DNA of 61,344 nucleotides from Minisyncoccia bacterium. GTDB taxonomy: Bacteria; Patescibacteriota; Minisyncoccia; Moranbacterales; GCA-2747515. This document shows positions 2,470 through 36,224 of this stretch, one piece after another; within the stretch, counting starts at the first letter, position 1; each line of letters begins with the position of its first letter. Position numbers and translations under genes: made by a program. Below the pieces are notes generated by a model. It ran no database searches and was not told the origin of the DNA. It saw only the letters and a list, made by a program, of their open reading frames with translations. Location: assembly GCA_041738235.1 (NCBI GenBank), contig JBGSQF010000013.1:1-61344 (forward strand), in the 5' to 3' direction.

Positions 2470-2478
2470 GATCGCTAT

Positions 2479-3411: not shown

Positions 3412-3418
3412 GTTATTG

Positions 3419-14159: not shown

Positions 14160-14945
14160 ATGCTTATGGCCCGTCATCACGAAAACTATTTTGAGCTTAT
14201 TTGGATGCTTGCCAAGACCGATTTTAAGCTTCGTTATCAGGGGTCGGCTTTGGGGTATGTTTGGGCTCTGCTTAAACCGCTACTTATGTTCCTTATATTG
14301 AATTTTGTATTTTCGTCGCTTTTTAACGCTCGCGGGAGTGGGATAGAACACTACTCCCTTCAGCTTTTAGTGGCTATCATGATGTTTAACTTTTTTGGCG
14401 AGGGATCAAGCGCTGGAATGCAGTCGCTTCTCAATAAATCTCAGTTGGTTACAAAGATCTATGTACCGAGATGGACGATAATTTTTGCTGCAACACTCAA
14501 TAGTGCAATGATATTTTTGATGAATCTTGTGGTGATCGTATTGTTTTTTTCTTGGTATCAATATCTTCCCAGTTTGGCCTCGATCGCGATGTTCTTTGTT
14601 TCATCAATATCCATCTTTGTTCTTGTGGTGTCGTTTGCTTTTTTTACAGCGCCGCTTTTTGTTCGCTTTCGCGATCTCTCGCTGATTTGGGAGGTGATCA
14701 TTTCACTTTTATTCTATATGACTCCAATTTTTTATCCGCTTCAGATGCTTCCCGCAAATGTTCAACAACTTCTTCTTCTCAATCCTATGGCATTTATTAT
14801 CCACTTTACAAAAGAATCCCTTGTTTCTAATCATTTTGCTGAGCTCTGGCAGTACGGGATGTTCTTCTTGATTCTTGCTTCAGGATTTGCATTAAGTATC
14901 TGGTTATATAATAAACTTGCTCCTAGAATTGCTGAGGAAATGTAG
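14160..14945 (+). CDS. ABC-2 type polysaccharide/teichoic-acid exporter permease (Wzm/TagG-like)
   Basis: FKLRYQGSALGYVWALLKPLLMFLILNFVF signature. Six TM helices, 261 aa. Confidence 0.85.
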   Translation: MLMARHHENYFELIWMLAKTDFKLRYQGSALGYVWALLKPLLMFLILNFVFSSLFNARGSGIEHYSLQLLVAIMMFNFFGEGSSAGMQSLLNKSQLVTKIYVPRWTIIFAATLNSAMIFLMNLVVIVLFFSWYQYLPSLASIAMFFVSSISIFVLVVSFAFFTAPLFVRFRDLSLIWEVIISLLFYMTPIFYPLQMLPANVQQLLLLNPMAFIIHFTKESLVSNHFAELWQYGMFFLILASGFALSIWLYNKLAPRIAEEM

Positions 14946-15711: not shown

Positions 15712-15753
15712 TTTGTGATCGCCAAGATACTATAATTGACTATTGAGGAGTTA

Positions 15754-16942: not shown

Positions 16943-17467
16943 ATGAAAAAAGGAGTTACGATTTGGCTTACGGGTCTGCCTTGTAGTGGTAAGACTACCA
17001 TAGCCCTTGAGATCGAGAGGTATTTTAAGAAGAATAATCTTCCCGTTCAGCGCTTGGACGGAGATGTTGTTCGTGGGACTCTTAGTAAAGACCTTGGTTT
17101 TTCCAAGGAAGACCGCGATAAGAATATTGAGCGCATTTCTTATGTTGCTCAGATGCTTGTGAATAATGGTGTGAATGTTGTAGTGGCATTTGTTTCACCG
17201 TATAGAAAGATGCGTGACTTTGCTCGAAGTGTTTGTCTAAATTTCTGCGAAGTCTATGTGAAATGCGATGTGGAAGAATGTATGAAACGAGATGTGAAAG
17301 GAATGTATAAAAAAGCTCTTAGTGGAGAGATCAAGGATTTTACTGGAGTGCAGGATCCTTACGAGGAACCGGAACACCCTGATGTTATTGTGGATACAAG
17401 GAAACACTCCCTGAAGGATTGTGTAAAACAGATAATTGTGGACTTGGAAGAGAGAAAAGACGAATAG
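16943..17467 (+). CDS. cysC: adenylylsulfate (APS) kinase
   Basis: P-loop GLPCSGKTT, LDGDVVR, and the 174-aa length typical of CysC. Confidence 0.9.
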   Translation: MKKGVTIWLTGLPCSGKTTIALEIERYFKKNNLPVQRLDGDVVRGTLSKDLGFSKEDRDKNIERISYVAQMLVNNGVNVVVAFVSPYRKMRDFARSVCLNFCEVYVKCDVEECMKRDVKGMYKKALSGEIKDFTGVQDPYEEPEHPDVIVDTRKHSLKDCVKQIIVDLEERKDE

Positions 17468-17492
17468 TTTTTGACGCCTTAGAGGATGAGAT

Positions 17493-18350
17493 ATGACGTA
17501 TTCTATTGTCAAAACATTTAAGAAATTTTTTAAGAAAAGACCGTTTCACATAGTGGCTCTTTTGTCTGTGCGTAATGAAGAACAATATATGGAGAGATGT
17601 CTCAGGCATCTTATTCAACAGGGGATCGATGTATATATTATTGATAATGACTCTGAGGATAACACACGAGAAATTGCTGAGAAATTTCTCGGCCATGGGG
17701 TGATGCATATTGAACGTTTTCCTTATAATGGATACTTTGACCATGTTGGGATTCTTCAGAGGAAGGAGGGGTTGTCGCGGGAAATTGATGCTGACTGGTT
17801 TATCCATCATGATGCTGATGAAATTCGTGAGGCCCCCTTGCCGTATAAGACTCTTTATGAAGCTATATATGATGTCGATAAACAAGGGTATAATGTTATC
17901 AACTTTGATGAATTTGTTTTTACTTCAACAGATCCCGAAGAATCTTTTGAGGGAAAGGATTATGTGTCTGAGATGGGATATTACTATTTTTTTGAACCAG
18001 GAATAATGAGGCGCATGAATGCTTGGAAGAAAAATCGGAGCGTTTCAATAGTGGAGAGTGGTGGGCACAGTATTGAATCTTCAAATTTGAGAGTGTTTCC
18101 GGTGAATTTTATATTGCGACATTATATTTATCTGAGTAAGGCTTACGCGGAGAAGAAATATACTGAGAGAAAGTTTTCTGAGAAAGAGATCGAGGAAAGA
18201 GGTTGGCATGGAAGAAGGGCTGTGATTAAACCTGGTGAAGTGATGGTTCCTTCAAAGGAGATTTTAAAGAGATGCAGGAACGATGGAATATGGGACAGGT
18301 CCGATCCATGGAAAAAGCACTACTTCTTGCATAATGGTGAGCGGTACTAA
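17493..18350 (+). CDS. GT-A glycosyltransferase (Glyco_tranf_2_4 / PF13704-like)
   Basis: LSVRNEEQYMERCLRHLIQQGIDVYIIDNDSEDNT ... DADWFIHHDADE. Confidence 0.6.
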   Translation: MTYSIVKTFKKFFKKRPFHIVALLSVRNEEQYMERCLRHLIQQGIDVYIIDNDSEDNTREIAEKFLGHGVMHIERFPYNGYFDHVGILQRKEGLSREIDADWFIHHDADEIREAPLPYKTLYEAIYDVDKQGYNVINFDEFVFTSTDPEESFEGKDYVSEMGYYYFFEPGIMRRMNAWKKNRSVSIVESGGHSIESSNLRVFPVNFILRHYIYLSKAYAEKKYTERKFSEKEIEERGWHGRRAVIKPGEVMVPSKEILKRCRNDGIWDRSDPWKKHYFLHNGERY

Positions 18351-18358
18351 ATAAATAT

Positions 18359-19168
18359 ATGTTTGGTGGTTTTACAGGCACATTATTGAATAGGCCAACT
18401 CCAATTATAATTGGGGGTTTTTATCGTTCAGGAACAAGTTTAGTGCGAAGGATCTTAGATTCCCATTCGGATATCCACTGTCCTTCTGAGATCAAGTTTT
18501 TTAAAGATTTCTATGGAGATTATCCTGCTGATCCTCTTGCTCATGTGAGGTTCTTCTCTACTGTGAAGAATGTGGGTCTTTCGGAAAGTGAGATACTGAA
18601 CGAAAGTCTCAAGTTTTTTGTAAAGCTCCATGAATTAGCAGCGAAGAAGAAGGGAAAAAGAAGGTGGGCTGATAAAAATCCAGATAATCTTCTTTATCTT
18701 GATCACTGGATGCAAGCTCTTAAAGAGATGCAGTTTGTTTTTGTTGTTAGAAATCCGCTTGATGTGATGGCCTCTTTGCTTGAAGTTAAATTTGAGAAAA
18801 CCATACCAGAAGCATTTGAAGAAAAGATCGAAATATACTCCCAGTTTCTTTTACGTGGGATCGATTTTTTTGAGAAAAATAAAGATTTAGCATTTGTTTT
18901 AAAATATGAAAATCTTGTGCAGAACACTGATGATGAATTACAAAAACTCTTTAGCTTTCTTGGTGAAAGGTTTGAGCCAAAAGTTAAGGCAGATTTTGCA
19001 AGTAGTGAAAGGGGTTCTGGTATAGAGGATCCGAAGGTAGGAAATAGAAAAAATATTCATACAGATAGTATAGACCGATGGAAAAGAGATCTCACATCAA
19101 AGCAAGTCGATCTAACCATCAAGAGGATCACTCCATTGATGAAGAGGGTGGGTTGCTCGTGGTCGTAA
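18359..19168 (+). CDS. PAPS-dependent sulfotransferase
   Basis: 5'-phosphosulfate-binding loop GGFYRSGTSLVRR and 3'-phosphate-binding-like VVRNPLDVMAS. Confidence 0.8.
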   Translation: MFGGFTGTLLNRPTPIIIGGFYRSGTSLVRRILDSHSDIHCPSEIKFFKDFYGDYPADPLAHVRFFSTVKNVGLSESEILNESLKFFVKLHELAAKKKGKRRWADKNPDNLLYLDHWMQALKEMQFVFVVRNPLDVMASLLEVKFEKTIPEAFEEKIEIYSQFLLRGIDFFEKNKDLAFVLKYENLVQNTDDELQKLFSFLGERFEPKVKADFASSERGSGIEDPKVGNRKNIHTDSIDRWKRDLTSKQVDLTIKRITPLMKRVGCSWS

Positions 19169-19220
19169 GGATGTTGACCTTTTTGTGCTGTTCGGTTGCA
19201 AGATCTTATTTTAGAAACAT

Positions 19221-20024
19221 ATGAAGGTAGACAAACAACATCGTGAAAGTTTATTCAAAATTATCCGAGGAGCTGGAAAGATGATGATGGATTCTTACCA
19301 TGCCAAGCATATTATTTACAAGAAGAGGGATAGAACTTTGGTTACGGAAGTGGATAGAAATGTTGATAAGAGAATATGTGATGGATTACAAAAACTTTTT
19401 CCCAAAATACCAGTTCTCAGCGAAGAGCGAAAGGATTTGCGGGAAAGATTGAAGGGTGAATGTGTCTGGATCCTCGATCCGCTTGACGGAACTCTTGATT
19501 TTATTGATAAAACGCGGGAATTTAGTGTTATGCTTGGTCTTGTTGTTGAAAACGAGCCAATCTTTGGAATAGTTTATCTTCCAGTGACTAGAGAACTTTT
19601 CTGGTCACATCGGAGAGAAGGATCATTTATATGTATTGATGGGAGGGAGGAAAGTATACGGGTAAGTTCTCGAAATATAAACCATGCAAGACTGCTTGTC
19701 AGTCGTTCTCATTTGGGACAACTTGAAAGTAGGTTGGCGAGAAAGTACTTTGGTAAATCAATAGAAATGGGGTCATCTGGGGTAAAAATGGTTCGAATTG
19801 CCCAAGGAAAAGCTGAAGCCTACATAAATTCCAGTGACAAAAGTTCGGAATGGGATACCTGTGGAGCTACTGTTATTCTTCAGGAGGCTGGTGGGAACAT
19901 CAGTGACATGGATGGTAATATCATTCGGTATAACGGCATAGATTCTCGTCACAGACATGGTTATGTTGCCACCAATGGAGTATGTCACAATGACATTTTG
20001 GAAGCTATTAGGTCTAATAAATAA
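19221..20024 (+). CDS. cysQ: 3'(2'),5'-bisphosphate nucleotidase, IMPase family (CysQ-like)
   Basis: IMPase motifs SEERKD, WILDPLDGTLDF, WDTCGATVILQEAGG. Sits between sulfotransferase and sat. Confidence 0.75.
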   Translation: MKVDKQHRESLFKIIRGAGKMMMDSYHAKHIIYKKRDRTLVTEVDRNVDKRICDGLQKLFPKIPVLSEERKDLRERLKGECVWILDPLDGTLDFIDKTREFSVMLGLVVENEPIFGIVYLPVTRELFWSHRREGSFICIDGREESIRVSSRNINHARLLVSRSHLGQLESRLARKYFGKSIEMGSSGVKMVRIAQGKAEAYINSSDKSSEWDTCGATVILQEAGGNISDMDGNIIRYNGIDSRHRHGYVATNGVCHNDILEAIRSNK

Positions 20025-20029
20025 AAAGT

Positions 20030-21112
20030 ATGGGAACGGTGATCGTACAAGTAAGTGATGAAGTTATTCAGGAGGCAGATAATATTGCTGATAACGTATA
20101 CGCACCACTTCGTGGATTTCTCCATGAGAAAGACTTTTGGTCGGTCTTAAACACATATCGTCTTACTAGTGGAGATGTCTGGGCGATGCCAATATTTTTT
20201 GATATTGGTGATGATCAGTATGAGTTGATCCGTAATAAGAGCGAATGTATTATTTTGGGACGTCAGGGTCAGCGGTTCCGGATGAGTGAATTATCAATCT
20301 ATGAGGTGGATAAAGGCAAGGCTTCCAAAAAAATATTTGGAACAAGTGATACAGCACATCCTGGTGTTGAAAAATTTTTCAGAACGGGAAAGAGATTTGT
20401 TGGGGGGATTGTGGAAAGAATATCTTCTGGCGCGAAAGATAAGTCGTTGCATTATCGCACGCCTGGAGAATTAAAAGAGTTATTTCAAAAAAATAGTTGG
20501 GAGGATGTCGTGGCTTTCCAGACGCGAAATCCCCCCCATCGATCACATGAGTTTTTGCAAAAGCAAGCCCTTGTACGGGCGGACGCTTTACTCGTCCAGC
20601 CAGTCATAGGACCCAAAAAGTCGGGCGATGTTGCGGACGAGTATATTATTGGAGCATATGAGATTCTTTTTGAGAAGTATTATCCAGATCGGAATGCGTT
20701 GTTAAGCACCTTTCATACGTTTATGCGCTATGCAGGACCGCGTGAGGCTGTTTTTCATGCCCTTGTTCGGAAAAACTTTGGGTGCGCTCGTATGATTGTG
20801 GGACGGGATCATGCTGGAGTGGGGAGTTACTATGATTCATATGCGGCACATCATATATTTGATCAGTTTGAGGCTGGGGAGATTGGGATTTCTGTGCTAA
20901 AATATCAAAATGCTTCGTTTTGCACCTCTTGTTTGGATATTCTTTTTGAAGGGGGGTGTAAATGTGCCGTTGAGAATCGTTTGAACATCTCTGGAACCAG
21001 ATTGCGTGAAATGCTCAAGAATGGAGAAGATATTCCTGAAGGTTTTATGCGAAAAGAAGTTTCGCAATATCTCATTCAGAATAATAAGGACCTTTTTTGT
21101 TTGTCCAGATGA
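20030..21112 (+). CDS. sat: sulfate adenylyltransferase (ATP sulfurylase)
   Basis: QTRNPPHRSHE and GRDHAGVG motifs, 360 aa. Confidence 0.9.
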   Translation: MGTVIVQVSDEVIQEADNIADNVYAPLRGFLHEKDFWSVLNTYRLTSGDVWAMPIFFDIGDDQYELIRNKSECIILGRQGQRFRMSELSIYEVDKGKASKKIFGTSDTAHPGVEKFFRTGKRFVGGIVERISSGAKDKSLHYRTPGELKELFQKNSWEDVVAFQTRNPPHRSHEFLQKQALVRADALLVQPVIGPKKSGDVADEYIIGAYEILFEKYYPDRNALLSTFHTFMRYAGPREAVFHALVRKNFGCARMIVGRDHAGVGSYYDSYAAHHIFDQFEAGEIGISVLKYQNASFCTSCLDILFEGGCKCAVENRLNISGTRLREMLKNGEDIPEGFMRKEVSQYLIQNNKDLFCLSR

Positions 21113-22083
21113 AGGAGAAAAGATTGAAAAAAGAAGTTATCTGTATTCTTGGAATGCATCGTAGTGGGACATCAATGATTTCTCGTCTTTTAAATATCTG
21201 TGGACTGTATCTTGGGGAAAAGGAGGAACTAATGGTCGAGCTTGATCTAAGAAGTAACAGAAAGGGACACTGGGAACATAGAGAAATCCTTGCGATTAAC
21301 GATGAAATTCTCAGTATTTTTGGCGGATCATGGGATGATCCCCCAACATTCCCTGATGGTTGGGAAAATGATCCAAGACTTGATACTCTCTTCGTTCAAG
21401 CAAATGTTTTAGTAAAGAGAATGAGCGATCGCTCTTTGGTGTGGGGTTTTAAGGAACCGCGAACCTGTTTAACGCTTCCTTTTTGGAAAAGAGTGATTCC
21501 AGGAATGACCTATGTCATCCCCATTCGGAGCATGTTTGAGATCGCCCAGTCTCTTTACAAGCGAGATAATTTTGCGTTGGCGCGCGGAATCTTTTTGTGT
21601 GTCATCTATTGGGAAAGTATATTAAAGAATACAAACGGCGAAAGACGGATATTTACTTTACAAAGGGACTATTTCGTTGATTGGAGCCGTGAATTGGGGA
21701 GAGTTTTGGATTTCATAGGTTGCAAAGATTTTTCTTTTTTGGGAAAGGAAGGGTTGGTTGGGGAATTCATATCCCCAGATCTTTTTCATAATAGGGCGGA
21801 GAATCTGGTAAGTTTTCAGGAGGCGAGGAATATCCTACCGAAAGTTGTGAAGGAAAACATAATCCTTAGAAAAGAGCTTGAGGAAAGATATCTAGAGATC
21901 AAAGCAAAAGATTCAACAATCGAAGCGAGAGATCTAGAGATCAAAGCAAAAGATTCAACAATCGAAGCGAGAGATTTGGAGATAAAGGAAGTAAAAGAGG
22001 AAGTGCAATTGGTAAAATCCTCAAAATTTTGGAAGTTACGGGAACAGTACACGACACTAAAAAGTCGATTATTTGGATTGTGA
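21109..22083 (+). CDS. sulfotransferase with C-terminal coiled coil and SSKFWKLR tail
   Basis: PSB loop LGMHRSGTSMISRLL and IPIRSMFEIAQS. Heptad-rich C-terminus ending KSSKFWKLREQYTTLKSRLFGL*. ATG 21109 overlaps the sat stop (ATGA). Confidence 0.8.
   Translation: MKEKRLKKEVICILGMHRSGTSMISRLLNICGLYLGEKEELMVELDLRSNRKGHWEHREILAINDEILSIFGGSWDDPPTFPDGWENDPRLDTLFVQANVLVKRMSDRSLVWGFKEPRTCLTLPFWKRVIPGMTYVIPIRSMFEIAQSLYKRDNFALARGIFLCVIYWESILKNTNGERRIFTLQRDYFVDWSRELGRVLDFIGCKDFSFLGKEGLVGEFISPDLFHNRAENLVSFQEARNILPKVVKENIILRKELEERYLEIKAKDSTIEARDLEIKAKDSTIEARDLEIKEVKEEVQLVKSSKFWKLREQYTTLKSRLFGL
21891..21974 (+). repeat. perfect 2 x 42-bp in-frame tandem duplication (LEIKAKDSTIEARD x2)
   Basis: 21891-21932 is identical to 21933-21974. 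A degenerate partial third copy follows. Confidence 0.95.
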
Positions 22084-22266
22084 TCAATGTGAAACTCGAT
22101 TCTTTTAAAGCGATCATCCATACTTGGTACAAGAGAAACATAAAACGTTTTATTCCACGTGGTTTTTTTGTTCTTGTGGGAGACACTTTTCGGGGGACTA
22201 CAAGTATCACGTCTCATATAAAAGGTCAAGAAAAAATACTGATAACTTCCATTAAGAAAGGATCTG

Positions 22267-23420
22267 ATGTTTTGGAAAAAAAGATATCCTTCCGGGATTT
22301 TTTGGTTGTGAGATAAGAGCGCGGTCAATTCTCATTGTTGAACCGAATAAATTTCATGGAGAAACGCTTCCCGGTTTTACAAAATATTTTCAGGATCTGG
22401 GGTACCATGTAGATATCTTTATGCGTATGCGAACATTTGAGGAGAATCCTTTTTCCCGATATCCTCAAACTCTTTATCCGAATATATATAGGGGAAGTTC
22501 GATAGAAATAAAGAACACTCTTGCACTTCGCAAGATTTCTGATTATGACTATATATTCTTTAGTACTAATTTTTATTACTATTACAATAAGGCATATGTG
22601 TCTTATTTGGGATTTTTCCCACAGGCAAGGATCGGTTCTTTATTTGTAGAGCACGGTTTATATTTTTTGCATCATAGTATGTGCAACGCGCTTCATAAAC
22701 AAGGGAGAGTTTTTTCGTTAACGGGTGAGTTGGGAAATGAGGTAGGAATAAAAATGCTCAACCCTCATTACTTTGGTAATGTTCAGATTACTGGGAGGTC
22801 ATCGGATGTGACTCAGTTCATAGTGGTTGGTATTAATGCCGGCAGGAGAAATATGGATTTGCTTGTCAAAGCTGTGGGAGTGCTAATTAAAGAGGGTATT
22901 GAAAATTTTTATGTTACTTGTATAGGCAAGGGGGGGTGTCGACGTGCCTGAGCAGTTAAAAAGGAAGTTTGGTTTTTTCGGTAGACAGCCATTTTCCGTG
23001 CTGTATTAGGAAGTTGAAAAATCGGATTTCGTACTTGCCTTACTAGATCCTTTAGCTGAAGAGCATAGAAAATATCTTAATGGACAGGCAAGTGGGACCA
23101 CTCAATTAAGTCTTGGTTTCGAAAAACCAATGGTACTTGAGAAGAGTTTTGCCCAAATGTATGGTTTTGACAATACAAATGGCCTGATATATGAAGGAGC
23201 GGGACTGGCAGACTGTATGAAATATGCCATAAAAATGGGTCAAGACACGTACAATGCTCTCCAGACTGCCATAGGGGAAAAGTCAGAAAATATAAGATCG
23301 CAGTCACTCAATAACCTTAAAGAATCCCTGAAAAAAATTGAAGAAACGGATCCTAGCTTAAGGCACTCCGCTGAATCTACTGAGCTAAGCTCCTATTTTC
23401 CTGATCAGAGCATTGTTTAA
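22267..23420 (+). pseudogene. disrupted paralogue of the 25574..26875 glycosyltransferase-like gene
   Basis: Readable against the paralogue across three frames. ATG 22267, then a shift in A7 (22276-22282), a shift in G7 (22930-22936), and an in-frame TAG at 23007-23009. Track fragments are 22421..22951 and 23130..23420. Confidence 0.75.
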
Positions 23421-23535
23421 TCTTATAAATCAATATATGATTAGTCTGGATGGTTCTTGCGTGTTTGAACTTAAAGGGAGAGCAAAGGCATGGTTTAAAA
23501 ATGGAGCATATAATTTCTAATCTACAGAAAAAGAG

Positions 23536-24645
23536 ATGAGGCCCAAGAAGGATCCAAAATTAATCATGACACTTTTTGTAAAAGATGAGGTGGATATTAT
23601 TCGCTATAATATAGAATTTCACCTTGCTCATGGAGTGGATTTTATAATTGCAACTGATAACGCTTCTATTGATGGCACAAGGGATATTCTTTTGGAGTAT
23701 CAAAATAAGGGACAGCTATTCTTGATCGATGCTCCGGAGGGAAGTTTTCCCCAGGCGGAATATAATAATAAGATGGCACAGATGGCAATGGAGGAATATG
23801 GCGCGGATGTGATATTTCATTGTGACGCGGATGAGTTTTGGTATCCTAAATATGGGGATCTCAAAACCGAGATATGGGAATCCTTGGAGGATGTTATGAT
23901 TGTAGAGCTTGCCAATGTTCTTTTGGCAGCAAGAAATGGCAATGAGTCTTTTCCCAAGGACGCAAAATACGCTGTAGTGAACCCTATACAGGCTGTTGAT
24001 TACATGAAAGAGACGGAAACAAAAAATCTTTATTTTTTTCGATATCCTCCGAAGGTGATGTTTAAGACAGGAAAGGGGTGTCTTTTGGTGGATCATGGAA
24101 ACCACCATATAATGAATGCAGCTGGGAATTTTGTACAAAGGAATTCTAAAAATATCACTATCTATCATTTTCCCATGAGAAGTAAGGAGAGATTTTTTCA
24201 AAAGGTGATCAAATGCGGTCGAGCAACTGAGAAAAGTAAGGCGTTGGATACAAATCAGAATTTTCACATTCGTCGGTGGTTCGCTGCATACAAAACAGGA
24301 AGGTTGGATGATGAATATGTCCATCTCACGGTGCAAGTGGATGAGGCTAAACAACTTAAGAATCAGGGTTTGCTTGTCGATTTCAGTTTTGAGCATATGA
24401 ATGATGTTGGGCTAGGAAGAGATTTTTCTCCTTTTAGGGAGATTGGGATCTTGGAGAGGGCATTTCAAGATAAAACGCAAGAGCTTCAGGATACAAAGGC
24501 CACGCTTCTTGGATTAACTCACGAGCTTCAGGATACAAAGGCCACGCTTCTTGGATTAACTCACGAGCTTGGGCATTTGAAGTCTTCAAAATTTTGGAAA
24601 TTACGGACAAAGTATATGTCATTAAAAAGCCGATTATTCGGGTGA
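23536..24645 (+). CDS. GT-A glycosyltransferase (PF13704-like) with C-terminal coiled coil and SSKFWKLR tail
   Basis: LFVKDEVDIIRYNIEFHLAHGVDFIIATDNASIDGT ... IFHCDADEFW. Tail KSSKFWKLRTKYMSLKSRLFG*. Confidence 0.65.
   Translation: MRPKKDPKLIMTLFVKDEVDIIRYNIEFHLAHGVDFIIATDNASIDGTRDILLEYQNKGQLFLIDAPEGSFPQAEYNNKMAQMAMEEYGADVIFHCDADEFWYPKYGDLKTEIWESLEDVMIVELANVLLAARNGNESFPKDAKYAVVNPIQAVDYMKETETKNLYFFRYPPKVMFKTGKGCLLVDHGNHHIMNAAGNFVQRNSKNITIYHFPMRSKERFFQKVIKCGRATEKSKALDTNQNFHIRRWFAAYKTGRLDDEYVHLTVQVDEAKQLKNQGLLVDFSFEHMNDVGLGRDFSPFREIGILERAFQDKTQELQDTKATLLGLTHELQDTKATLLGLTHELGHLKSSKFWKLRTKYMSLKSRLFG
24481..24570 (+). repeat. perfect 2 x 42-bp in-frame tandem duplication (ELQDTKATLLGLTH x2) plus 6 nt of a third copy
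   Basis: 24481-24522 is identical to 24523-24564. 24565-24570 repeats the first 6 nt. Confidence 0.95.
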
Positions 24646-24656
24646 TAAATAACCTC

Positions 24657-25403
24657 ATGAATGAGAACATTGCTATTTCTGTAGAAAATGTAAGTAAATC
24701 TTTCCGCATTCCTCATGAGAAAATATCTTCAGTGCGTGGGGTGTTTGTGAATGCTCTTCGTCCCGGCAGGACAACTTACGAAGAGTTTAAAGCTCTCGAC
24801 AATGTGTCCTTTGAGGTAAAGAAGGGTGAATTTTTTGGTATTATCGGGCGTAACGGTAGTGGGAAATCGACACTTCTTAAGATCCTTGCAAATATCTATC
24901 AACCGGATAAAGGAAAAGTTTTTATAGATGGGATGGTCTCACCGTTTCTTGAACTGGGTATAGGATTTAACCCCGAACTTTCCGGACGAGACAACGTGTA
25001 TCTTAATGCTACTGTATTAGGACTTACCAAGAAGCAAATTGATGAGAAATTCGACTCCATCATCGCCTTCTCCGAACTCGATCGGTTTATTGATCAAAAA
25101 CTCAAGAATTATTCTAGTGGGATGCAGGTGCGACTTGCCTTCTCCGTTTCCATATATGCCAATAGAGAGATACTTCTTATGGACGAGGTGTTGGCTGTGG
25201 GGGATGCAAATTTTCACAAAAAGTGTCTTGATCATTTTGAATCTATAAAAGGGAATAAAACCGTTCTACTTGTAACGCACGATCTTGAAACCGCAGAAGA
25301 ATTTTGTGACCGAATAGCAGTTATTGATCAAAGTAAACTTCAATTTGTGGGTTCTCCAAGGGAGTCGGTAAGTATCTATAAAGATCGCATGAAAGAAAAA
25401 TAA
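24657..25403 (+). CDS. ABC exporter ATP-binding protein (Wzt/TagH-like), short form
   Basis: Walker A GRNGSGKSTL, signature YSSGMQVRL, Walker B LLMDEVLAVGD. 248 aa with no C-terminal extension. ATG 24657 lies inside the ORF that opens at 24594. Confidence 0.9.
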   Translation: MNENIAISVENVSKSFRIPHEKISSVRGVFVNALRPGRTTYEEFKALDNVSFEVKKGEFFGIIGRNGSGKSTLLKILANIYQPDKGKVFIDGMVSPFLELGIGFNPELSGRDNVYLNATVLGLTKKQIDEKFDSIIAFSELDRFIDQKLKNYSSGMQVRLAFSVSIYANREILLMDEVLAVGDANFHKKCLDHFESIKGNKTVLLVTHDLETAEEFCDRIAVIDQSKLQFVGSPRESVSIYKDRMKEK

Positions 25404-25573
25404 TCGGGGATAACTTATAAATTTTGCTTCTGAAAGGTTCAAGATAGGTTATCTTCCAGTGTATTTGCTGAGAATCCTTTAAGTCTTACCGGTTTCGTTT
25501 TATGGAAACTATAGGTACGACTTACTAGAACGTAAGAAGAAAATGTTTTATTACCGGATGCTTTAAGAAAAAT

Positions 25574-26875
25574 ATGGATACTTCAAAGAAACAGATTCTT
25601 TTAGAATTTCGTGAACATGGGATCAGGGACAAATCGGTTCTTATTGTAGAGCCAAATGAGTGTCATGGAGAAACGCTTCCCGGCTTTACAAAATATTTTC
25701 AAGATCTGGGATATTGTGTAGATATCTTTATGCGAACGGGAACATTTAATGAGAATCCATTTTCGCGATATCCGCAGAGTCTTTATCCAAATATATACAA
25801 GGGTTGTTCGACAGAGATCAAAAATACTCTCGCATCTCCAGAAATCCTTGAATATGACTATGTGTTTTTCAATAGTAATTGGGAGTATGCTCACGGAAAA
25901 ACATACACGGCATATTTGGGTTTTTTCCCACAAGCAAAGTTTGGGTCGATGTTTGTAGAACATGGTGCTTATTTCTTCCAGAAAAATGAATGTAACTGCC
26001 TATATGGACAAGAAAGGGTTTTTGCATTGACAGATGCATTGGGAGGTGAAATGGGAATAAAGACGCTTAGCCCTCACTATTTTGGGGATGTTCGCATAAC
26101 AAAGAAATCATCGGATGAAGTGAGATTTGCAGTTGTTGGGGTCAGCCCTGATAGAAGAAATGTGGATTTACTTTTAGATGCGGTAGATACACTGACAAAA
26201 GGGGGTGTTGAGAATTTTCGTATTACCTGTATTGGAGATGGAAGGAGGAGTGTTCCTAAAGGGTTGGGAGGAGTGCTTAACTTCTTGGGGAGACAGTCTT
26301 TCTCCGTCCTATATGAAGAGGTGGAGAAAGCGGATTTTATCCTTGCTTTATTGGATCCTTCAAGTGAAAATCATAGGAATTATTTACGTGGGAAAGCAAG
26401 CGGTACTGTTCAGCTAAGTCTTGGATTTGGGAAACCAATGATTATCGAGGAACATTTTGCCGAGGTGTATGGATTTAACAATGAAAATTGCTTGCTGTAC
26501 CGGGGAAATGAATTAGCGTCTACAATGAAAAATGCAATAGAAATGAGTCAAGGTGAGTATTGTAATATCCAGCACGGTCTCAAAGATAAGAAAGACGATT
26601 TGGGCATGAAATCGATAAATAATTTAAGAAGATTCCTAGTCAGGGTGAAAGAACTTGATTTAAGGACAAAGAGATGTGCAGAGCTCATTGACTCTGAAAT
26701 GAATAATATAAGAGATGATATAAACCGGATGAATAGGGTCGTTTATGATCTGAATCGGGAAATAACCTTCATGCGATCATCTAGATTTTGGAAGATGCGA
26801 TGCTTGTGGAATAATGTAAAGGTTTTTGTGTCTTCTCCAGCTAAATTTATAAGAAAGTACTTTAAGATTGTATAA
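25574..26875 (+). CDS. GT-B-like glycosyltransferase-like protein with coiled coil and SSRFWKMR tail
   Basis: C-terminal half is GT-B-like (FAVVGVSPDRRNVDLL..., GKASGTVQLSLGFGKPMII). Ends ...MRSSRFWKMRCLWNNVK...*. Family uncertain. Confidence 0.6.
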   Translation: MDTSKKQILLEFREHGIRDKSVLIVEPNECHGETLPGFTKYFQDLGYCVDIFMRTGTFNENPFSRYPQSLYPNIYKGCSTEIKNTLASPEILEYDYVFFNSNWEYAHGKTYTAYLGFFPQAKFGSMFVEHGAYFFQKNECNCLYGQERVFALTDALGGEMGIKTLSPHYFGDVRITKKSSDEVRFAVVGVSPDRRNVDLLLDAVDTLTKGGVENFRITCIGDGRRSVPKGLGGVLNFLGRQSFSVLYEEVEKADFILALLDPSSENHRNYLRGKASGTVQLSLGFGKPMIIEEHFAEVYGFNNENCLLYRGNELASTMKNAIEMSQGEYCNIQHGLKDKKDDLGMKSINNLRRFLVRVKELDLRTKRCAELIDSEMNNIRDDINRMNRVVYDLNREITFMRSSRFWKMRCLWNNVKVFVSSPAKFIRKYFKIV

Positions 26876-26889
26876 TTTTGTTTAATCCC

Positions 26890-27756
26890 ATGAACGTTGC
26901 TTTCTCTGTTATACTTCCAACGTACAATCGCAAGCTATGTATAGGGCGTGCGATAGATTCTTTGCTATCCCAATCATTTAATAGATTCGAGCTTATTGTT
27001 ATTGATGACGGATCCTCTGATGGTACAAAAGACTTCTTGGAGGATAAATATAACAAAGAGTTGAACGATCGAAAAATCCGATATATTAAACTAGAGGAAA
27101 ATAAGGGGGTTTCTTTTGCTCGAAATGAGGGATTGAAGAGGTCACAATATGAGTGGGTTGCTTACCTTGACTCTGACAATCAAATGAGGCCAGATTTTTT
27201 AGGAACATTTTCTAATTATATTATTCGATACCCTGAGAAAAAGGCATTTTATGCTCAAGCAAGAAAGGTTAATTCAGGAGAAATTGTGGGACATGAGTTT
27301 GATTTTAATCGCTTGATACACGGGAATTATATAGATCTTGGGGTTTTTGTTCATGCTCGTAAATTATATGAGACATTCGGTGGATTTGACATTGGTCTGA
27401 GGAGATTAGTAGATTGGGATTTGATTATTCGGTATTCGGAGGAGTATAGTCTTAAGTTTATAGAGGAGGTGCTATTGGATTATTATGACGGATCGGATTT
27501 CTCAAGGATCACAAACTGTGCCTCCCTTGGAGAAAATTATAAGAAAATAGTTTTAGAGCATTACCAGAGAGTGCCATCGGAGTTTTTTATGGAGCAATAC
27601 AATACATATTATAAGATGTATATGGAACTGGAAGAGAGGATGGCAATACTAGAAAAGAATCTTCAACAAAAAAATCAGCAAATCAAACTTATAGAAGCAT
27701 CAAAATTTTGGAAGCTGAGGGAATTTTTGTTAAAGAATATGAGAAGGAAGATATGA
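26890..27756 (+). CDS. family 2 glycosyltransferase with coiled coil and ASKFWKLR tail
   Basis: FSVILPTYNRKLCIGRAIDSLLSQSF..ELIVIDDGSSDGT and LDSDN. Tail EASKFWKLREFLLKNMRRKI*. Confidence 0.85.
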   Translation: MNVAFSVILPTYNRKLCIGRAIDSLLSQSFNRFELIVIDDGSSDGTKDFLEDKYNKELNDRKIRYIKLEENKGVSFARNEGLKRSQYEWVAYLDSDNQMRPDFLGTFSNYIIRYPEKKAFYAQARKVNSGEIVGHEFDFNRLIHGNYIDLGVFVHARKLYETFGGFDIGLRRLVDWDLIIRYSEEYSLKFIEEVLLDYYDGSDFSRITNCASLGENYKKIVLEHYQRVPSEFFMEQYNTYYKMYMELEERMAILEKNLQQKNQQIKLIEASKFWKLREFLLKNMRRKI

Positions 27757-28739
27757 AAAGTGACGTTTCAATCATAATTGTTAATTATGCCTCAAAGGAG
27801 GATACATTTAAGTGTATCCAAAAGATCAAAGAATATACATCTAAAATCTCCTATGAGATCATTGTTGTTGATAATGCTTCAAGGGAGGACATTGGTACGG
27901 AACTGGTCAAAAAGTATCCAGATGTGATTTTTCTCCAAATGTCTTACAATGCAGGATTTGCTCGGGCAAACAATAGAGGTATTGAGATTTCAGGAGGGAG
28001 GTATGTTTTGCTGCTCAATCCAGACGCATTTATTACTGCAAATTCTGTGGACAGATGTGTCCAAAAGATGGATGCCTATCCCGATATTGTTGCGTCCGGT
28101 TGTCAGCTATTAAATTTGGATGGCAGTAAGCAGTTCTCTGGTGGCTATTTTGAACGAGGGAGACGCTGGATTGTGGAGGTTCCATATTGGAGAAGAGTTG
28201 CCAAGCCGGTGTTTGATCTATTTATAAAGGAGAAACAGCTTGATCCGGATCGTGTAGATTGGATAATAGGGGCTTTTCTTTTGGTCAGAAAGGACCCCCT
28301 GAAAAGAGTTGGGTTATTTGATGAAGATTTCTTTCTCTATGCTGAAGAAATTGAGTTATGTTCTCGTCTTAAGAAGTTTGGTAGGGTGGTTATATTTCGA
28401 GATGTCCAAGTATATCACGTTATGGGCGGATCTTCGAGCTATGCATTTGGGACTGATTGTGTTAATCTATGGGACAGGCGTGAGCGGCAACGTATTCTTT
28501 CTGTTCTTGTTTGGCTTAGAAAACAGTACGGCGTTCCATGGTTTTTGATCTCGCTTAGTTGTTTTATTTTTGCTATTCCATTCTATGCATGTGGAAACAT
28601 TCTTGATGTTCTAAGGGGCAGGCAGACTATTTCCCGGGCATTGTATAAAACTGGTAACTATATCTTAAATTGTTTTGTTTGGCTCTCTTATCTGAGGAGA
28701 ATTATTTCCAATAAACCTTATTTCTATAAAACATTATGA
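27753..28739 (+). CDS. family 2 glycosyltransferase with C-terminal TM helices
   Basis: VSIIIVNYASKEDTFKCI...IIVVDNASRED and LLNPDA. ATG 27753 overlaps the preceding stop (ATGA). Confidence 0.85.
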   Translation: MKSDVSIIIVNYASKEDTFKCIQKIKEYTSKISYEIIVVDNASREDIGTELVKKYPDVIFLQMSYNAGFARANNRGIEISGGRYVLLLNPDAFITANSVDRCVQKMDAYPDIVASGCQLLNLDGSKQFSGGYFERGRRWIVEVPYWRRVAKPVFDLFIKEKQLDPDRVDWIIGAFLLVRKDPLKRVGLFDEDFFLYAEEIELCSRLKKFGRVVIFRDVQVYHVMGGSSSYAFGTDCVNLWDRRERQRILSVLVWLRKQYGVPWFLISLSCFIFAIPFYACGNILDVLRGRQTISRALYKTGNYILNCFVWLSYLRRIISNKPYFYKTL

Positions 28740-30019
28740 GCGATGAAGTTAAACTTATAGCTTTTTATCTGCCACAATTTCATACAATCCCTGAAAATGA
28801 TAAATGGTGGGGAGAAGGGTTTACGGAATGGACGAATGTTCGAAAGGCAAAACCTCTTTTTGATGGTCATTATCAACCTCATGTTCCACACAGTGATATT
28901 GGATATTATAACCTTCGTAACATTGAGACTCAGAAACAGCAGGCAAAAACTGCTCAAAAGTATGGCATTTATGGTTTTTGTTACTATCACTATTGGTTTG
29001 GCGGCAAGAAACTTCTTGAAACGCCATTACAAAATGTCTTACAGCATCCAGAGATCGATCTCCCATTCTGTATATGTTGGGCAAATGAGAATTGGACTAG
29101 GAAATGGGATGGGGCTGAAAAGAAGATTCTCATTGCGCAAAAGCACAGCCCTGAAGATGACTTGGCATTTATTAAGGACGTTATGCCAGCATTAAAAGAT
29201 AGTCGATATATTTTCGTGGATGGCAAGCCTCTTCTTGTGGTTTATCGTCCAGCTTTATTTCCTGATTTCAAGGAAACCGCGAAAATTTGGAGGGCAGAAG
29301 TAAAAAAGAATGGTTTTCCGGGTTTGCATATTGCCCGAGTTGAAAATTTTGATAATGGCGTAGCCCCAGAAAAATTTGGATGTGATATTAATATAGACTT
29401 TTCTCCCGATTTTGATCTTGGTGAGTCGATAAGGTCAAAAAAACCCGCTACTTTTTCCTATGATGATTTGGTGGTGCGGAAGTTATCAAAAATTCGTCCA
29501 TACTCGTTTGTACAGAGTGTTTGTCCTTCCTGGGATAACGCTGCAAGGCGTCAGGATGGGGGTGGTTTTACCTTTGTTCACTCTTCACCAGAAAAATATG
29601 AGTATTGGTTGAAGCATTCAATTAAAAAAACACTTATTGAGGGTGGGCGCTCGGATCATAATATGATTTTTATCAATGCTTGGAATGAGTGGGGGGAGGG
29701 TGCACATTTGGAGCCAGACGAGAAGTATGGCTATGCTTATTTAGAAGCAACAAAAAAAGCTATCCATGATGCTCAAATGGAGGTAAAATCGGGTTTTGTT
29801 TTAGAACAAAAGATATTTAAAGAATTTGGTTCTTTGCTTTTAGAGCGAGGAAAGAATCTCGATGAAATAGCAAGATTAAGTTATGTATTGGAACAAAGAG
29901 AGCAGGAATTAAACCTGATGCGATCGTCGAAGTTTTGGAAAATGCGTGAGGCATGGGAGGGTGTAAAATGGCTGGTGAGAAATCCCCTGAAGTGGACAAA
30001 AAAACATATTCTAAAATAG
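28736..30019 (+). CDS. WbsX-like glycosyltransferase/GH99-like protein with coiled coil and SSKFWKMR tail
   Basis: LIAFYLPQFHTIPENDKWWGEGFTEWTNV is the family signature (PF14307-like). Tail RSSKFWKMREAWEGVKW...*. ATGA overlap with the upstream gene. Confidence 0.8.
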   Translation: MSDEVKLIAFYLPQFHTIPENDKWWGEGFTEWTNVRKAKPLFDGHYQPHVPHSDIGYYNLRNIETQKQQAKTAQKYGIYGFCYYHYWFGGKKLLETPLQNVLQHPEIDLPFCICWANENWTRKWDGAEKKILIAQKHSPEDDLAFIKDVMPALKDSRYIFVDGKPLLVVYRPALFPDFKETAKIWRAEVKKNGFPGLHIARVENFDNGVAPEKFGCDINIDFSPDFDLGESIRSKKPATFSYDDLVVRKLSKIRPYSFVQSVCPSWDNAARRQDGGGFTFVHSSPEKYEYWLKHSIKKTLIEGGRSDHNMIFINAWNEWGEGAHLEPDEKYGYAYLEATKKAIHDAQMEVKSGFVLEQKIFKEFGSLLLERGKNLDEIARLSYVLEQREQELNLMRSSKFWKMREAWEGVKWLVRNPLKWTKKHILK

Positions 30020-30211: not shown

Positions 30212-32428
30212 TTGGATAAAGAAATAGCTGTGTTAAAGGTTATACAGAAAGTGCGATATATCGTACGGTCGTCTTGGGCAACATTCCAGAATGAAGGAAT
30301 AATAAGACTTTTTCTTCGTGCGTTCTCTTTCCTTGTTTATGGAAAGGGTGTTTTAAATGTGCGAGAATATGAAAAAAGAAGGAAAGACTTCGATGCATTG
30401 CATGGGATTACTTTGTCGGATGCCATACATTGTCTTAGTGGCGCTGAGGGGGAGGACTACACTAAAGAAAGGTGGAAATTTAGGATGGTTGATATTGTTA
30501 TTCCAATTTACAATGGAATGCAATTTCTGCCTGCTTTATTTGAGAGTGTACTAAAAAATTCCGATATTCCCCATAGGCTAATAGTTGTAGATGATGCAAG
30601 TTCTGATGTTAATGTTTGGCCGTTTTTAGAGGAGATGAAGGAAAAATTTGGTGAGGAAAGAATGATCCTGCTAAAAAATAAAAAAAATTTAGGCTTTGTT
30701 GAAACTGTCAATAAGGCGGTTGGTTATACCAAAAACCATTTTGTTCTACTCAATTCTGATACAGAAGTTCCGAGAGAGTGGCTCTCTCGTTTAATGTTGC
30801 CCATTTTTGAAAATAAAAATATAGCGAGCGTTACACCGTTTTCTAATTCGGCAACTATTTTCAGTTTTCCTATCCCCCAACAGGATAATGATCTATTAAC
30901 TGGGTATTCTTTGAGTGAGATCGATGCGGCTTTTCGTCTCGTGTCAGGTTCGAGGAATAGAATAGCCGTCCCAACTGGGATGGGCTTTTGTATGGGGATA
31001 AACAAAGAAGTAGCTAACGAAATAGGAATGTTCGATGCTGAGAAATTTGGTAGGGGATTTGCTGAAGAAAACGATTGGTGTCAGAGAGCTATCAAGAGGG
31101 GATATAGAAATATAGTAGCGCCAAATGTTTTTGTTTATCACAAACATTGCGCTTCTTTCGATAGTGAAGAAAAGAAACAACTGATCGAAAAAAATCTAAA
31201 GACACTGACGGAAACGTATCCTGGTTATCATAAAGATGTACATGACTTTATAGTAAAAGATCCATTTAAGAAGATACGGGATATTGTTTTGTTTCTCATC
31301 TTGGCAAATCCGAAAAATGAACCAGATCGTCCCATATTGGTCTTTAACCATCTTTTAGGAGGAGGATCAGCTGATTTTATGACAAGAGATATGCAGAATC
31401 GGGTTCAGAGGGGTGCTCAAATATTGGAAGTTTCTTATGATGCACGCAGAAGTGAATATTTTCTCGCTTTTTATTCGGGACCCCATACGATTCGTTATAG
31501 GTTTTCTGATTGGAAAGAATTCGATGATCTTTTTCAGTATTTTGCAATTCAGAAGGTGGAAGTAAACCATATTATTTCATTTAAATATCCCTTGGAGACA
31601 ATCTCCTGGATCGATAGGGTTCGTAGAAATAGAGGTGTTCCTGTAAAATTATACTTACATGACTACTATGCGATATGTCCGAATTACACCTTGGTAAATG
31701 AACTTGGTTCTTACTGTGGTATACCGAATCTTCCAAATGAGCTATCAAGATGTACCACGTGTTTATCTAAGACAAGAACACAGTACACTTTATATACCCC
31801 AGGGAAGGTAGATATCATGCAATGGCGCAAGACTTGGGGACATTTTCTGCTCAATCTGGATGAAATAGTTTGTTTTTCTGAGTCATCAAAAAATATCTTA
31901 TTACGAGCGTATCCGCAACTTACCTCTCGGAGTCTCATAGTTCGCCCACATGAAGTGAATTATCTTGATGAGATTTGGAAGGGACCACGTCGTAGAAATT
32001 CGAATGAACCTTTGAACGTGGGTGTTTTGGGGGGGATCAACTTTGTGAAAGGAGCATCTCTGTTGAAGGAACTTGCTTTAATTATCAAGAAGGGAGAAAT
32101 AAACATGCAAATAGTCATTATTGGAGAATATGTGGAAAAACAGAAGCACAAAAATATTACGGTAACGGGGAAATTTCAACTTAAGGACATTGCTCATCTT
32201 ACAAAAAAATACAAGATTGATATTTTCTTTATTCCTTCGATCTGGCCTGAAACATTTTCTTTTACTGCAGAAGAGGTTATGCAGATGGGATATCCTTTAA
32301 TCGTATTTGATATTGGTGCCCCAGCCGAGAGAGTAAGAAGATATAAAAGGGGGATCATTGTCTCTGAGGTTAGTGCTCAGTTGGCCTATAAGGCACTTCA
32401 AAAATATAATGAAAAGTTAAAAATATGA
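30212..32428 (+). CDS. two-domain glycosyltransferase (N-terminal GT2 plus C-terminal GT-B/GT4-like)
   Basis: GT2 part: VDIVIPIYNGMQFL...LIVVDDASSD, NSDTEV. GT-B part: VGVLGGINFVKGASLL..., PSIWPETFSFTAEEVMQMGYPLIVFDIGA. TTG start, 738 aa. Confidence 0.8.
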   Translation: MDKEIAVLKVIQKVRYIVRSSWATFQNEGIIRLFLRAFSFLVYGKGVLNVREYEKRRKDFDALHGITLSDAIHCLSGAEGEDYTKERWKFRMVDIVIPIYNGMQFLPALFESVLKNSDIPHRLIVVDDASSDVNVWPFLEEMKEKFGEERMILLKNKKNLGFVETVNKAVGYTKNHFVLLNSDTEVPREWLSRLMLPIFENKNIASVTPFSNSATIFSFPIPQQDNDLLTGYSLSEIDAAFRLVSGSRNRIAVPTGMGFCMGINKEVANEIGMFDAEKFGRGFAEENDWCQRAIKRGYRNIVAPNVFVYHKHCASFDSEEKKQLIEKNLKTLTETYPGYHKDVHDFIVKDPFKKIRDIVLFLILANPKNEPDRPILVFNHLLGGGSADFMTRDMQNRVQRGAQILEVSYDARRSEYFLAFYSGPHTIRYRFSDWKEFDDLFQYFAIQKVEVNHIISFKYPLETISWIDRVRRNRGVPVKLYLHDYYAICPNYTLVNELGSYCGIPNLPNELSRCTTCLSKTRTQYTLYTPGKVDIMQWRKTWGHFLLNLDEIVCFSESSKNILLRAYPQLTSRSLIVRPHEVNYLDEIWKGPRRRNSNEPLNVGVLGGINFVKGASLLKELALIIKKGEINMQIVIIGEYVEKQKHKNITVTGKFQLKDIAHLTKKYKIDIFFIPSIWPETFSFTAEEVMQMGYPLIVFDIGAPAERVRRYKRGIIVSEVSAQLAYKALQKYNEKLKI

Positions 32429-34515: not shown

Positions 34516-34658
34516 GCGAAGTTTTCGTGGATCTAGCTGAGCTGTCAATGCAAAAGGGTTCGCAGTCAATAATGATGTCGTTTTGGGACTGTTGTACCCA
34601 TCTCGTTCTGTAGGAGTACCCTGTACAAATCAAGGTGCAGAGATGATGTAATAGAATT

Positions 34659-36026: not shown

Positions 36027-36224
36027 GCGTTAACAAGATAGGACGATTCGCATTATTATTTTATTGTATAACCGTATATAATTTTTTTTAATAGTCTATT
36101 TTGAGCTTCTTTCAAACGGTTCTTCTAAAAAGGATTATTTTAATTTTAGTAGGTTTCTGGGATGTCTAAAGTGCTTGCCTTACTCTTTTTTCGTGGTATA
36201 CTGGGGAAATTGAAGGTTATAGGG

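Follow-up and report, generated by a model that had tools for sequence, protein, structure and literature searches.

Why should five enzymes of different families, encoded in one glycan-biosynthesis locus, end in the same way? The question is raised by contig JBGSQF010000013.1 from a Minisyncoccia bacterium (assembly GCA_041738235.1), of which the whole stretch of 61,344 nucleotides is referred to below as the window. A six-frame translation of the window contains exactly five copies of the sequence FWK[LM]R, core of a shared SSKFWKLR-type motif, all of them on the forward strand and 11-24 residues before a stop codon; only 0.027 matches are expected per window (8 in 300 composition-preserving shuffles). 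The motifs lie where a preliminary description of this DNA had placed them, at 22018-22041, 24583-24606, 26777-26800, 27697-27720 and 29924-29947. Each is the start of a short C-terminal foot that follows a coiled-coil stalk; stalk and foot together are termed the tail.

The five tailed enzymes are numbered in their order along the forward strand. Gene 1 (21109..22083, +) encodes a sulfotransferase-like enzyme of 324 amino acids ending in KSSKFWKLREQYTTLKSRLFGL. Its match to PF13469 is weak (E 0.0096, under the family cut-off) and a PDB sequence search with it gave no match; it aligns with the bona fide, untailed sulfotransferase encoded at 18359-19168 (+) across both signatures for binding 3'-phosphoadenosine 5'-phosphosulfate (PAPS). 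Gene 2 (23536..24645, +) encodes a GT-A glycosyltransferase (GT) of 369 amino acids resembling PF13704 and GT92 (E values 8e-13 and 6e-8), with the tail KSSKFWKLRTKYMSLKSRLFG. Gene 3 (25574..26875, +) encodes a GT4-like glycosyltransferase of 433 amino acids that has no Pfam hit and no PDB sequence hit. Its AlphaFold2 (AF2) model (predicted local distance difference test score, pLDDT, 89.2; predicted template modelling score, pTM, 0.83) was matched by Foldseek to PimA (2gej, E 3e-10), BshA and WaaG, all at E about 1e-10, and also to MshA, and the protein is therefore assigned a GT-B fold. Gene 4 (26890..27756, +) encodes a GT2 enzyme of the GT-A fold with 288 amino acids (PF00535, E 1.4e-31) and the tail EASKFWKLREFLLKNMRRKI, and gene 5 (28736..30019, +) a WbsX-family protein of 427 amino acids, in which PF14307 matches residues 7-339 (E 1.7e-130). 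The catalytic assignments first proposed are thus upheld by Pfam for PF13704, GT2 and WbsX and by structure prediction for GT-B; that of the sulfotransferase is weak in Pfam and consistent with the aligned PAPS signatures. Since two of the five enzymes have the GT-A fold, they represent five families and not, as first stated, five folds. Outside the tails, no two of them are related in catalytic sequence (local scores 27-50).

The tails are short in genes 1, 2 and 4, with 11 to 13 residues after the motif, and long in genes 3 and 5, where an extra basic helix extends the foot to +24 and +23, respectively. From motif to stop, the DNA of the feet of genes 1 and 2 (the latter at 24583..24642, +) is identical at 49 of 63 nucleotides (78%), one fewer than had been counted by hand, and only 33% identical over the 60 nucleotides upstream. 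This is a local feature of that pair, as the remaining tail pairs are 41-56% identical.

AF2 models were made for genes 1 and 3, and both contain a long single helix, a break at Ser-Ser and then a helix of about 15 residues. The gene 1 model is a single-sequence prediction that is usable for the tail only (pLDDT 62-89, against less than 40 in the catalytic domain). It places a single-helix stalk at residues 236-305 (21814..22023, +; 70 amino acids, about 105 Å if straight) and a foot of SSKFWKLR plus 13 residues (22018..22080, +) with the break between SS and K and a helix at residues 307-322. In the gene 3 model, read with DSSP, the stalk is a single helix at residues 326-402 (26549..26779, +; 77 amino acids, about 115 Å if straight), and the break at residue 403 is followed by a foot that begins with SSRFWKMR (26777..26872, +) and forms helices 404-418 and 422-430. 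Stalk lengths in the window differ, from roughly 40 to 77 residues. The sequence before the motif had been described as heptad-rich, and occupancy of heptad positions a and d is indeed significant in four of the five tails (p <= 0.011), namely 0.67 against 0.13 elsewhere in gene 1 (p = 0.007), with p = 0.011 in gene 3 and 0.003 in gene 4; it is weaker in the WbsX tail of gene 5 (p = 0.2).

The stalk and the foot are joined in a fixed register. Across about 320 tails, hydrophobic residues occupy the a positions at -33, -26, -19, -12 and -5 and the d positions from -30 to -2, counted from the first Ser of the motif, so that the heptad register is fixed relative to the motif across at least five heptads. 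The next a position (+2) is Lys, and a new 3-4-3-4 series starts one residue late, with F+3, L+6, W+10, L+13 and L+17; the one-residue skip at SSK is therefore a conserved design. In each of the five tails of the window, Phe occupies position b of the upstream register. The consensus reads (coil)-I-x-A-M-E-S-S-K-F-W-K-L-R-x-x-W-F-x-L-K-R-x-L-G-L, from a motif logo drawn in part from a word-index homologue search with the tail alignment, which returned fragments of at most 104 amino acids. Stalk length, in turn, changes in units of the same register. Adjacent near-identical repeats with periods of 7, 14, 21 and 28 residues are found in 25, 33, 5 and 16 of 295 tails, respectively, and almost never with other periods; stalks evolve by whole heptads. 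Tandem Repeats Finder identified two independent 42-bp, or two-heptad, repeats in the stalks of gene 1 (21886..21987, +; 2.5 copies, 93% matches) and gene 2 (24474..24570, +; 2.3 copies, 96% matches), which indicate that stalk length has recently changed in register.

The tail is not peculiar to this window. Of 1.84 billion cluster representatives scored with a 34-position tail profile, at least 899 match at E <= 1e-3, and 42 do so at E <= 1e-10. The motif is almost always C-terminal, with a median of 16 further residues (5th-95th percentile 12-48). A Pfam census, limited to 78 hits of at least 200 amino acids, groups the carriers into GT1/GT4-type (18) and GT2 (13) glycosyltransferases, S-adenosylmethionine (SAM)-dependent methyltransferases (about 12), FkbM proteins (6), sulfotransferases (3-5), radical SAM proteins (2) and PhyH (1). 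Of the 35 matched Pfam families, the 25 most frequent all belong to glycan building or modification. Among species-representative genomes, more than 598 pattern sites were found and 519 confirmed; the best 80 of these 519 are nearly all from cyanobacteria, supplemented by one metagenome-assembled genome (MAG) each of the Binatia, the deltaproteobacteria and an unclassified lineage. The early impression that similar C-termini occur on glycan enzymes of other phyla is therefore borne out by both the profile and the genome scans, mostly for cyanobacteria. No curated domain family covers the tail: Pfam-A 2025 returned only spurious sub-threshold coiled-coil hits (Cast, DUF1664, Tnp_22_trimer), nothing in NCBIfam 20.0 matches, PDB chains gave no match to the profiles of this motif or of the sister motif described below, and a string search of the literature with the motif strings found nothing relevant.

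In some proteins the motif is also internal. P0080, a protein of 1087 amino acids, carries it twice, in the order methyltransferase, coil, motif (residue 397), GT2, GT2, coil and motif (residue 1064). Cyanobacterial multi-GT proteins of 1,400-2,100 amino acids possess an internal variant (AIKSSKLWKIREKW or SDWWKLREKWW; also SKLWKIR) after an N-terminal coil. These giants are found in the foreign loci L004, L007 (10227-16544, for example), L012, L020, L050, L053 and L060, and immediately upstream of them stands a methyltransferase gene with a C-terminal tail.

The tail is an add-on, because 36 of 39 homologues of the gene 3 GT-B enzyme lack it and end right after a conserved ...SLNNLK helix. 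The tailed members are only the window protein, a 79% orthologue and one 39% relative, the last with a different stalk made of SLSEEIN repeats. Similarly, the tail is present in 11 of the 48 members of one GT2 family found in foreign loci. The proposal that the tail moves as a module is in keeping with these counts, which support a discrete module whose gains and losses do not follow the catalytic domain. A tail-less relative exists even within the window. A tblastn search with the gene 3 protein identified a frameshifted paralogue at 22277..23375 (+), which aligns with gene 3 residues 5-223 at 64% identity and, in the next frame, with residues 223-370 at 51%. It stops after the ...SLNNLK helix with neither coil nor motif, so a tail-less copy stands between two tailed genes; it is either a pseudogene or the product of a sequencing frameshift near 22932.

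Tailed genes are linked to ATP-binding cassette (ABC) transporters of the Wzm/Wzt type. Counts were drawn from 78 foreign loci carrying tailed genes, and in 36 of these (46%) two to five tailed open reading frames (ORFs) lie within 20 kb. A Wzm and Wzt pair is found within 10 kb in 46 of the 78, usually on the same strand, and in 31 of the 41 loci with both flanks complete. These figures support a strong link between the tail and Wzm/Wzt loci. Recurrent neighbours are Wzt (median 468 amino acids, with Wzt_C), Wzm, tailed methyltransferases and the giant multi-GT proteins. The non-cyanobacterial metagenomic locus L091 contains, in this order, Wzt with Wzt_C, a pyruvyl transferase, a tail, GT2 and GT4. 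There, at 2455-3790, the polysaccharide pyruvyl transferase gene is overlapped by an out-of-frame ORF of 64 amino acids that consists of coil and SSKFWKLR foot alone, and is either part of a frameshift-split tailed enzyme or a free-standing stalk-and-foot. Tails within one locus show an identity of 0.495, against 0.444 between genomes. Concerted tail evolution as evidence of hetero-oligomers was considered and dropped, because the effect is small and confounded by phylogeny.

The closest known architecture is that of WbdD, in which catalytic domains are carried on a trimeric coiled-coil ruler and alteration of the coil length alters the length of the O-antigen (PMC3482155, PMC5082667, PMC11231755). 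The C-terminal region of WbdD is responsible for membrane association and for recruitment of the polymerase WbdA (PMC3482155, PMC11231755). The statement that no functional description exists thus holds for the motif, and does not hold for the architecture, which follows an established paradigm (PMC11231755, PMC3482155, PMC5082667). In WbdD of E. coli HS, the coil ends at residue 592 with IEKIHRSRSWRMTKGYRYLGL, a probable sister of the window motif in the equivalent place. A sister motif, N-S-x-S-W-[KR]-[IL]-T-x-P-L-R-[WYF], follows the coil in ten Alpha- and Gammaproteobacterial proteins that were read, and is placed 10-15 residues from the stop, or is succeeded by about 110 residues, as in WbdD, or by GT modules. 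A tblastn search with a cyanobacterial SKSWKIT tail found it on plasmids, in methyltransferase, FkbM, sulfotransferase, GT2 and RgpF-like genes. An intermediate form is seen in a cyanobacterial neighbour of the F-class tails, which ends in ...DIQNSKSWKITAPLRW and extends 17 residues past SKSWKIT. Both motif classes have in common a(-5), d(-2), S(+1), W(+4), [KR](+5) and [LIM](+6), and hhalign aligned them with 93.6% probability (P = 2e-7) and the motifs in register. The observed hhalign score of 28.9 compares with 15.5 +/- 2.1 (maximum 24.9) for shuffles of the motif columns, none of 150 of which reach it. By these comparisons, homology of the SSKFWKLR tail and the WbdD coil end is probable, not proven. 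A homologue search with the WbdD junction and the tail of L006 gave two hits, both WbdD fragments, and a metagenome scan with the same alignment confirmed two loci with patterns dominated by the coiled-coil part.

Comparison with WbdD of E. coli O9a and K. pneumoniae O3, a methyltransferase-kinase that terminates chains, reveals both likeness and difference. As in WbdD, a catalytic domain leads into an extended coiled coil and then a C-terminal end, with wzm and wzt nearby, and the window tails share with the residue-592 site the hydrophobic a(-5) and d(-2), Ser(+1), Trp(+4), [KR](+5) and [LIM](+6). WbdD, however, runs on for about 110 residues past its motif, as against 11-24 in the window tails, and whereas the stalk of the WbdD system is on the terminator only, five window enzymes are stalked, glycosyltransferases included. 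In the K. pneumoniae O7 ORF6/O12 WbbB type, a single polypeptide unites the terminator with a coiled coil and with polymerase GT modules (PMC11231755). Compared by description only, this layout resembles cyanobacterial P0080 and the giants with the motif at the junction of coil and GT, and differs from that of the window enzymes, which are separate polypeptides, each with its own stalk. The proteobacterial NSxSWRITxPLR class agrees with the window tails in its position after the coil, enzyme classes, proximity to the C-terminus and heptad register, and differs in the core, S-W-R-I-T-x-P-L-R instead of K-F-W-K-L-R-x-x-W. The Pro in this core suggests that the chain turns differently beyond the motif, and no function has been described for it.

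On these grounds, the tail is best read, with somewhat better than even confidence, as a portable stalk-and-foot of the WbdD kind, by which soluble enzymes would be brought together as oligomers and held where the glycan is assembled at the membrane, at a height defined by the stalk. The stalk, a parallel coiled coil whose length varies (about 40-77 residues here), would oligomerise the appended enzymes; a one-residue heptad skip, or hinge, at Ser-Ser would join it to the foot, a basic-aromatic helix of 20-30 residues with the consensus SSKFWKLRxxWFxLKRxLGL. The foot would lie against the inner membrane on its cytoplasmic side, presumably the place where undecaprenyl-linked glycan is built for export by Wzm/Wzt, and the catalytic domain would be held off the membrane at a distance set by the stalk. 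The tail would thereby correspond to, and probably be homologous with, the end of the WbdD ruler from which the region for membrane association and polymerase recruitment starts. As a single foot binds membranes weakly, avidity would come from oligomerisation of the stalk. The module's existence and conservation, its mobility, its register-locked anatomy and its genomic linkage are observed; membrane association, the oligomeric state and a ruler function are ascribed to the tail by inference, and its physical docking, whether to membrane, exporter or other tails, is suggested by analogy with WbdD.

Several established C-terminal devices were considered for the foot. C-terminal targeting sequences of the MinD/FtsA type are poorly conserved and clearly amphipathic, and their membrane binding depends on oligomerisation. 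The foot resembles them as a short C-terminal basic and hydrophobic helix for which oligomerisation would be needed for effective binding; unlike them, it is almost invariant, weakly amphipathic and always found after a register-locked coiled coil. A classical amphipathic membrane-targeting helix is not supported, given the modest moment and the lack of a clean polar/apolar split. A tail-anchored or transmembrane C-terminus was rejected, as there is no hydrophobic stretch of at least 18 residues and the post-motif residues are charged, for example EQYTTLKSRLFGL and EAWEGVKWLVRNPLKWTKKHILK. A C-terminal secretion or sorting signal was rejected because the motif is also internal in multi-module proteins and its carriers are cytoplasmic enzymes. 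The foot carries a positive charge (+2 to +7) and many Trp and Phe residues, with Arg+7 and Lys+14 on the hydrophobic face of its helix, and is better described as basic-aromatic than as amphipathic.

Several observations weigh against a WbdD-like membrane tether. The tail profile does not detect WbdD with HMMER (-1.1 bits), the hhalign probability falls to 45% with motif-only profiles, and generic coiled coil contributes about half of the full hhalign score. The window Wzt is without the cap-recognising carbohydrate-binding domain that accompanies terminator/ruler systems, while the related cyanobacterial loci and L091 have Wzt_C. Tailed proteins are often methyltransferases in the cyanobacterial loci. 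In the window the sulfotransferase-like enzyme is the only plausible capper and the other four tailed enzymes are of glycosyltransferase type; four of the five do not stand out as chain terminators, which leaves a strict ruler role unproven in this locus. The Eisenberg hydrophobic moment of the foot (0.14-0.41) is indistinguishable from that of shuffles, and 20% of consensus shuffles reach the observed value, so that the amphipathic tail of the preliminary description is weakly supported. On the Wimley-White interfacial scale, a single foot comes out about neutral in energy. Finally, the near-invariance of S-S-K-F-W-K-L-R is above what is usual for lipid-binding amphipathic helices and hints at a specific partner.

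Such a partner is the substance of the alternative that survives best, namely that the foot is not a lipid binder but a specific protein-protein docking element for other feet, Wzm/Wzt or the polymerase. This is regarded as possible and clearly short of an even chance, and it does not exclude the membrane tether, with which it is compatible. Either the feet of several enzymes would join into a single hetero-oligomeric platform, or each would bind a conserved partner; the motif would then act as an address tag for the assembly line, the idea put forward in the preliminary description, whose interpretation is partly supported overall. It would account for the extreme conservation of SSKFWKLR..W across phyla and for the common occurrence of two to five tailed enzymes per locus, and agrees with the strong Wzm/Wzt linkage and with the giant polymerases that carry the motif internally beside a tailed methyltransferase of the same locus. 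The membrane-proximal region of WbdD recruits WbdA (PMC3482155, PMC11231755), and the heptad series of the foot itself, with its aromatic a/b face, fits helix-helix packing. However, 42 of the 78 loci have a single tailed gene within 20 kb, tails of the same locus are barely more alike than those of different genomes (0.495 against 0.444), and clustering gave no conserved non-enzymatic neighbour besides Wzm/Wzt. A bolder proposition, which must be called rather unlikely, is that all foot-bearing enzymes co-assemble through their feet at or around Wzm/Wzt into a single membrane platform and that heptad-quantised stalks of differing length set the catalytic heights, so that the order and position of glycosylation, sulfation and capping on the growing chain would be encoded in space. 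If true, it would amount to a multi-ruler assembly line into which new enzymes are plugged by gaining a tail.

The motif might, improbably, be a structural cap or oligomerisation determinant that fixes the register or trimer state of the coil and has no targeting role, the stalk serving only to make the enzymes oligomeric. The locked register between coil and motif would suit such a cap, as would the internal motifs between coil and GT modules, and the polar d positions (T/Q/A) and aromatic core may fit higher-order coils. A cap leaves unexplained why the motif is almost exclusively linked to glycan enzymes and Wzm/Wzt loci, why the foot is so strongly positive and why its distance to the C-terminus, 15-17 residues, is sharply conserved; moreover, AF2 predicts a break at SS and not a continuous coil. 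Chance, low-complexity sequence or recent local duplication of 3' ends has a negligible probability. Recent local exchange could explain at least the tails of genes 1 and 2, 78% identical over 63 nucleotides; the reading as a whole is refuted by five observed matches against 0.027 expected, 899 matching database clusters, other tail pairs that keep the motif at 41-56% DNA identity and a 79%-identical gene 3 orthologue elsewhere with the same tail.

In terms of the WbdD-like tether, the tail is a sequence-defined version of a known architectural principle and not a new kind of system. The ruler/scaffold concept has so far been based on a few enterobacterial prototypes, with coiled coil as the sole recognisable marker. 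The tail supplies a sharp signature for the probable membrane-proximal end of the stalk, in two related classes, that is absent from Pfam and NCBIfam. With this signature, hundreds to thousands of enzymes could be annotated and ABC-dependent glycan loci recognised, and the point from which stalk length should be measured could be fixed. Stalks are not confined to terminators and are found on polymerising glycosyltransferases, sulfotransferases and others, often several per locus, which extends the current model. Stalked enzymes make the spatial organisation of glycan assembly directly testable, and the portable module is a candidate tag for bringing engineered enzymes to the site of glycan assembly.

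The tailed genes belong to a co-directional glycan-biosynthesis locus at about 11.3-36 kb of the window, defined from the ORF list and Pfam, which includes the Wzm/Wzt transporter. It begins with a GT4-family initiating transferase (11353, +) and a GT1 enzyme (12550, +), followed by the Wzm ABC-2 permease (14160..14945, +; PF01061, E 2.4e-14), and GT2, GT8 and GT2_4 enzymes were also identified by Pfam. A complete PAPS supply lies, with the second, untailed sulfotransferase, within 16943-21112 (+) and comprises an adenosine 5'-phosphosulfate (APS) kinase (16943, +), a CysQ-like phosphatase (19221, +) and an ATP sulfurylase (20030, +). The product of the locus is probably a sulfated glycan. The Wzt ATPase (24657..25403, +) is a short form with PF00005 alone and without the Wzt_C carbohydrate-binding domain. 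Its length is 248-269 amino acids, as the mechanical ORF opens at a TTG at 24594, inside the tail of gene 2; the first ATG past the gene 2 stop, at 24657, is the start given here. The five tailed genes flank Wzt, and further GTs complete the locus. At 32425-36026 (+), a right-handed beta-helix protein with a signal peptide and a triple DUF5648 C-terminus is followed by a polytopic DUF6056 membrane protein; the two possibly perform periplasmic or outer steps of glycan processing.

Other enzymes of the locus have different C-termini. The GT8 enzyme (15736-16812, +) has a basic and hydrophobic end, ...ALIVLKRGFKIFRGLCRQCVRGVVSFGR, with no motif, and the GT2 enzyme at 27708-28739 has predicted transmembrane segments at its C-terminal end; these enzymes therefore seem to use different devices for membrane association. 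The genes flanking the locus are housekeeping genes for ScpA, D-Ala-D-Ala carboxypeptidase, SecDF, LolC/E-like permeases, MreB, PBP2 and MurJ, and the locus is therefore chromosomal and belongs to a diderm bacterium. GC content is about 38% in the glycan locus, against about 44% in its flanks. Nearly all long ORFs of the window (1-61344) lie on the forward strand, and GC skew is positive in each 2-kb bin (0.13-0.31). One tRNA-Arg was identified in the window by Rfam and tRNA scans. SecD (36162-38012, +) contains an inserted peptidyl-prolyl isomerase (rotamase) domain at about residues 183-268.

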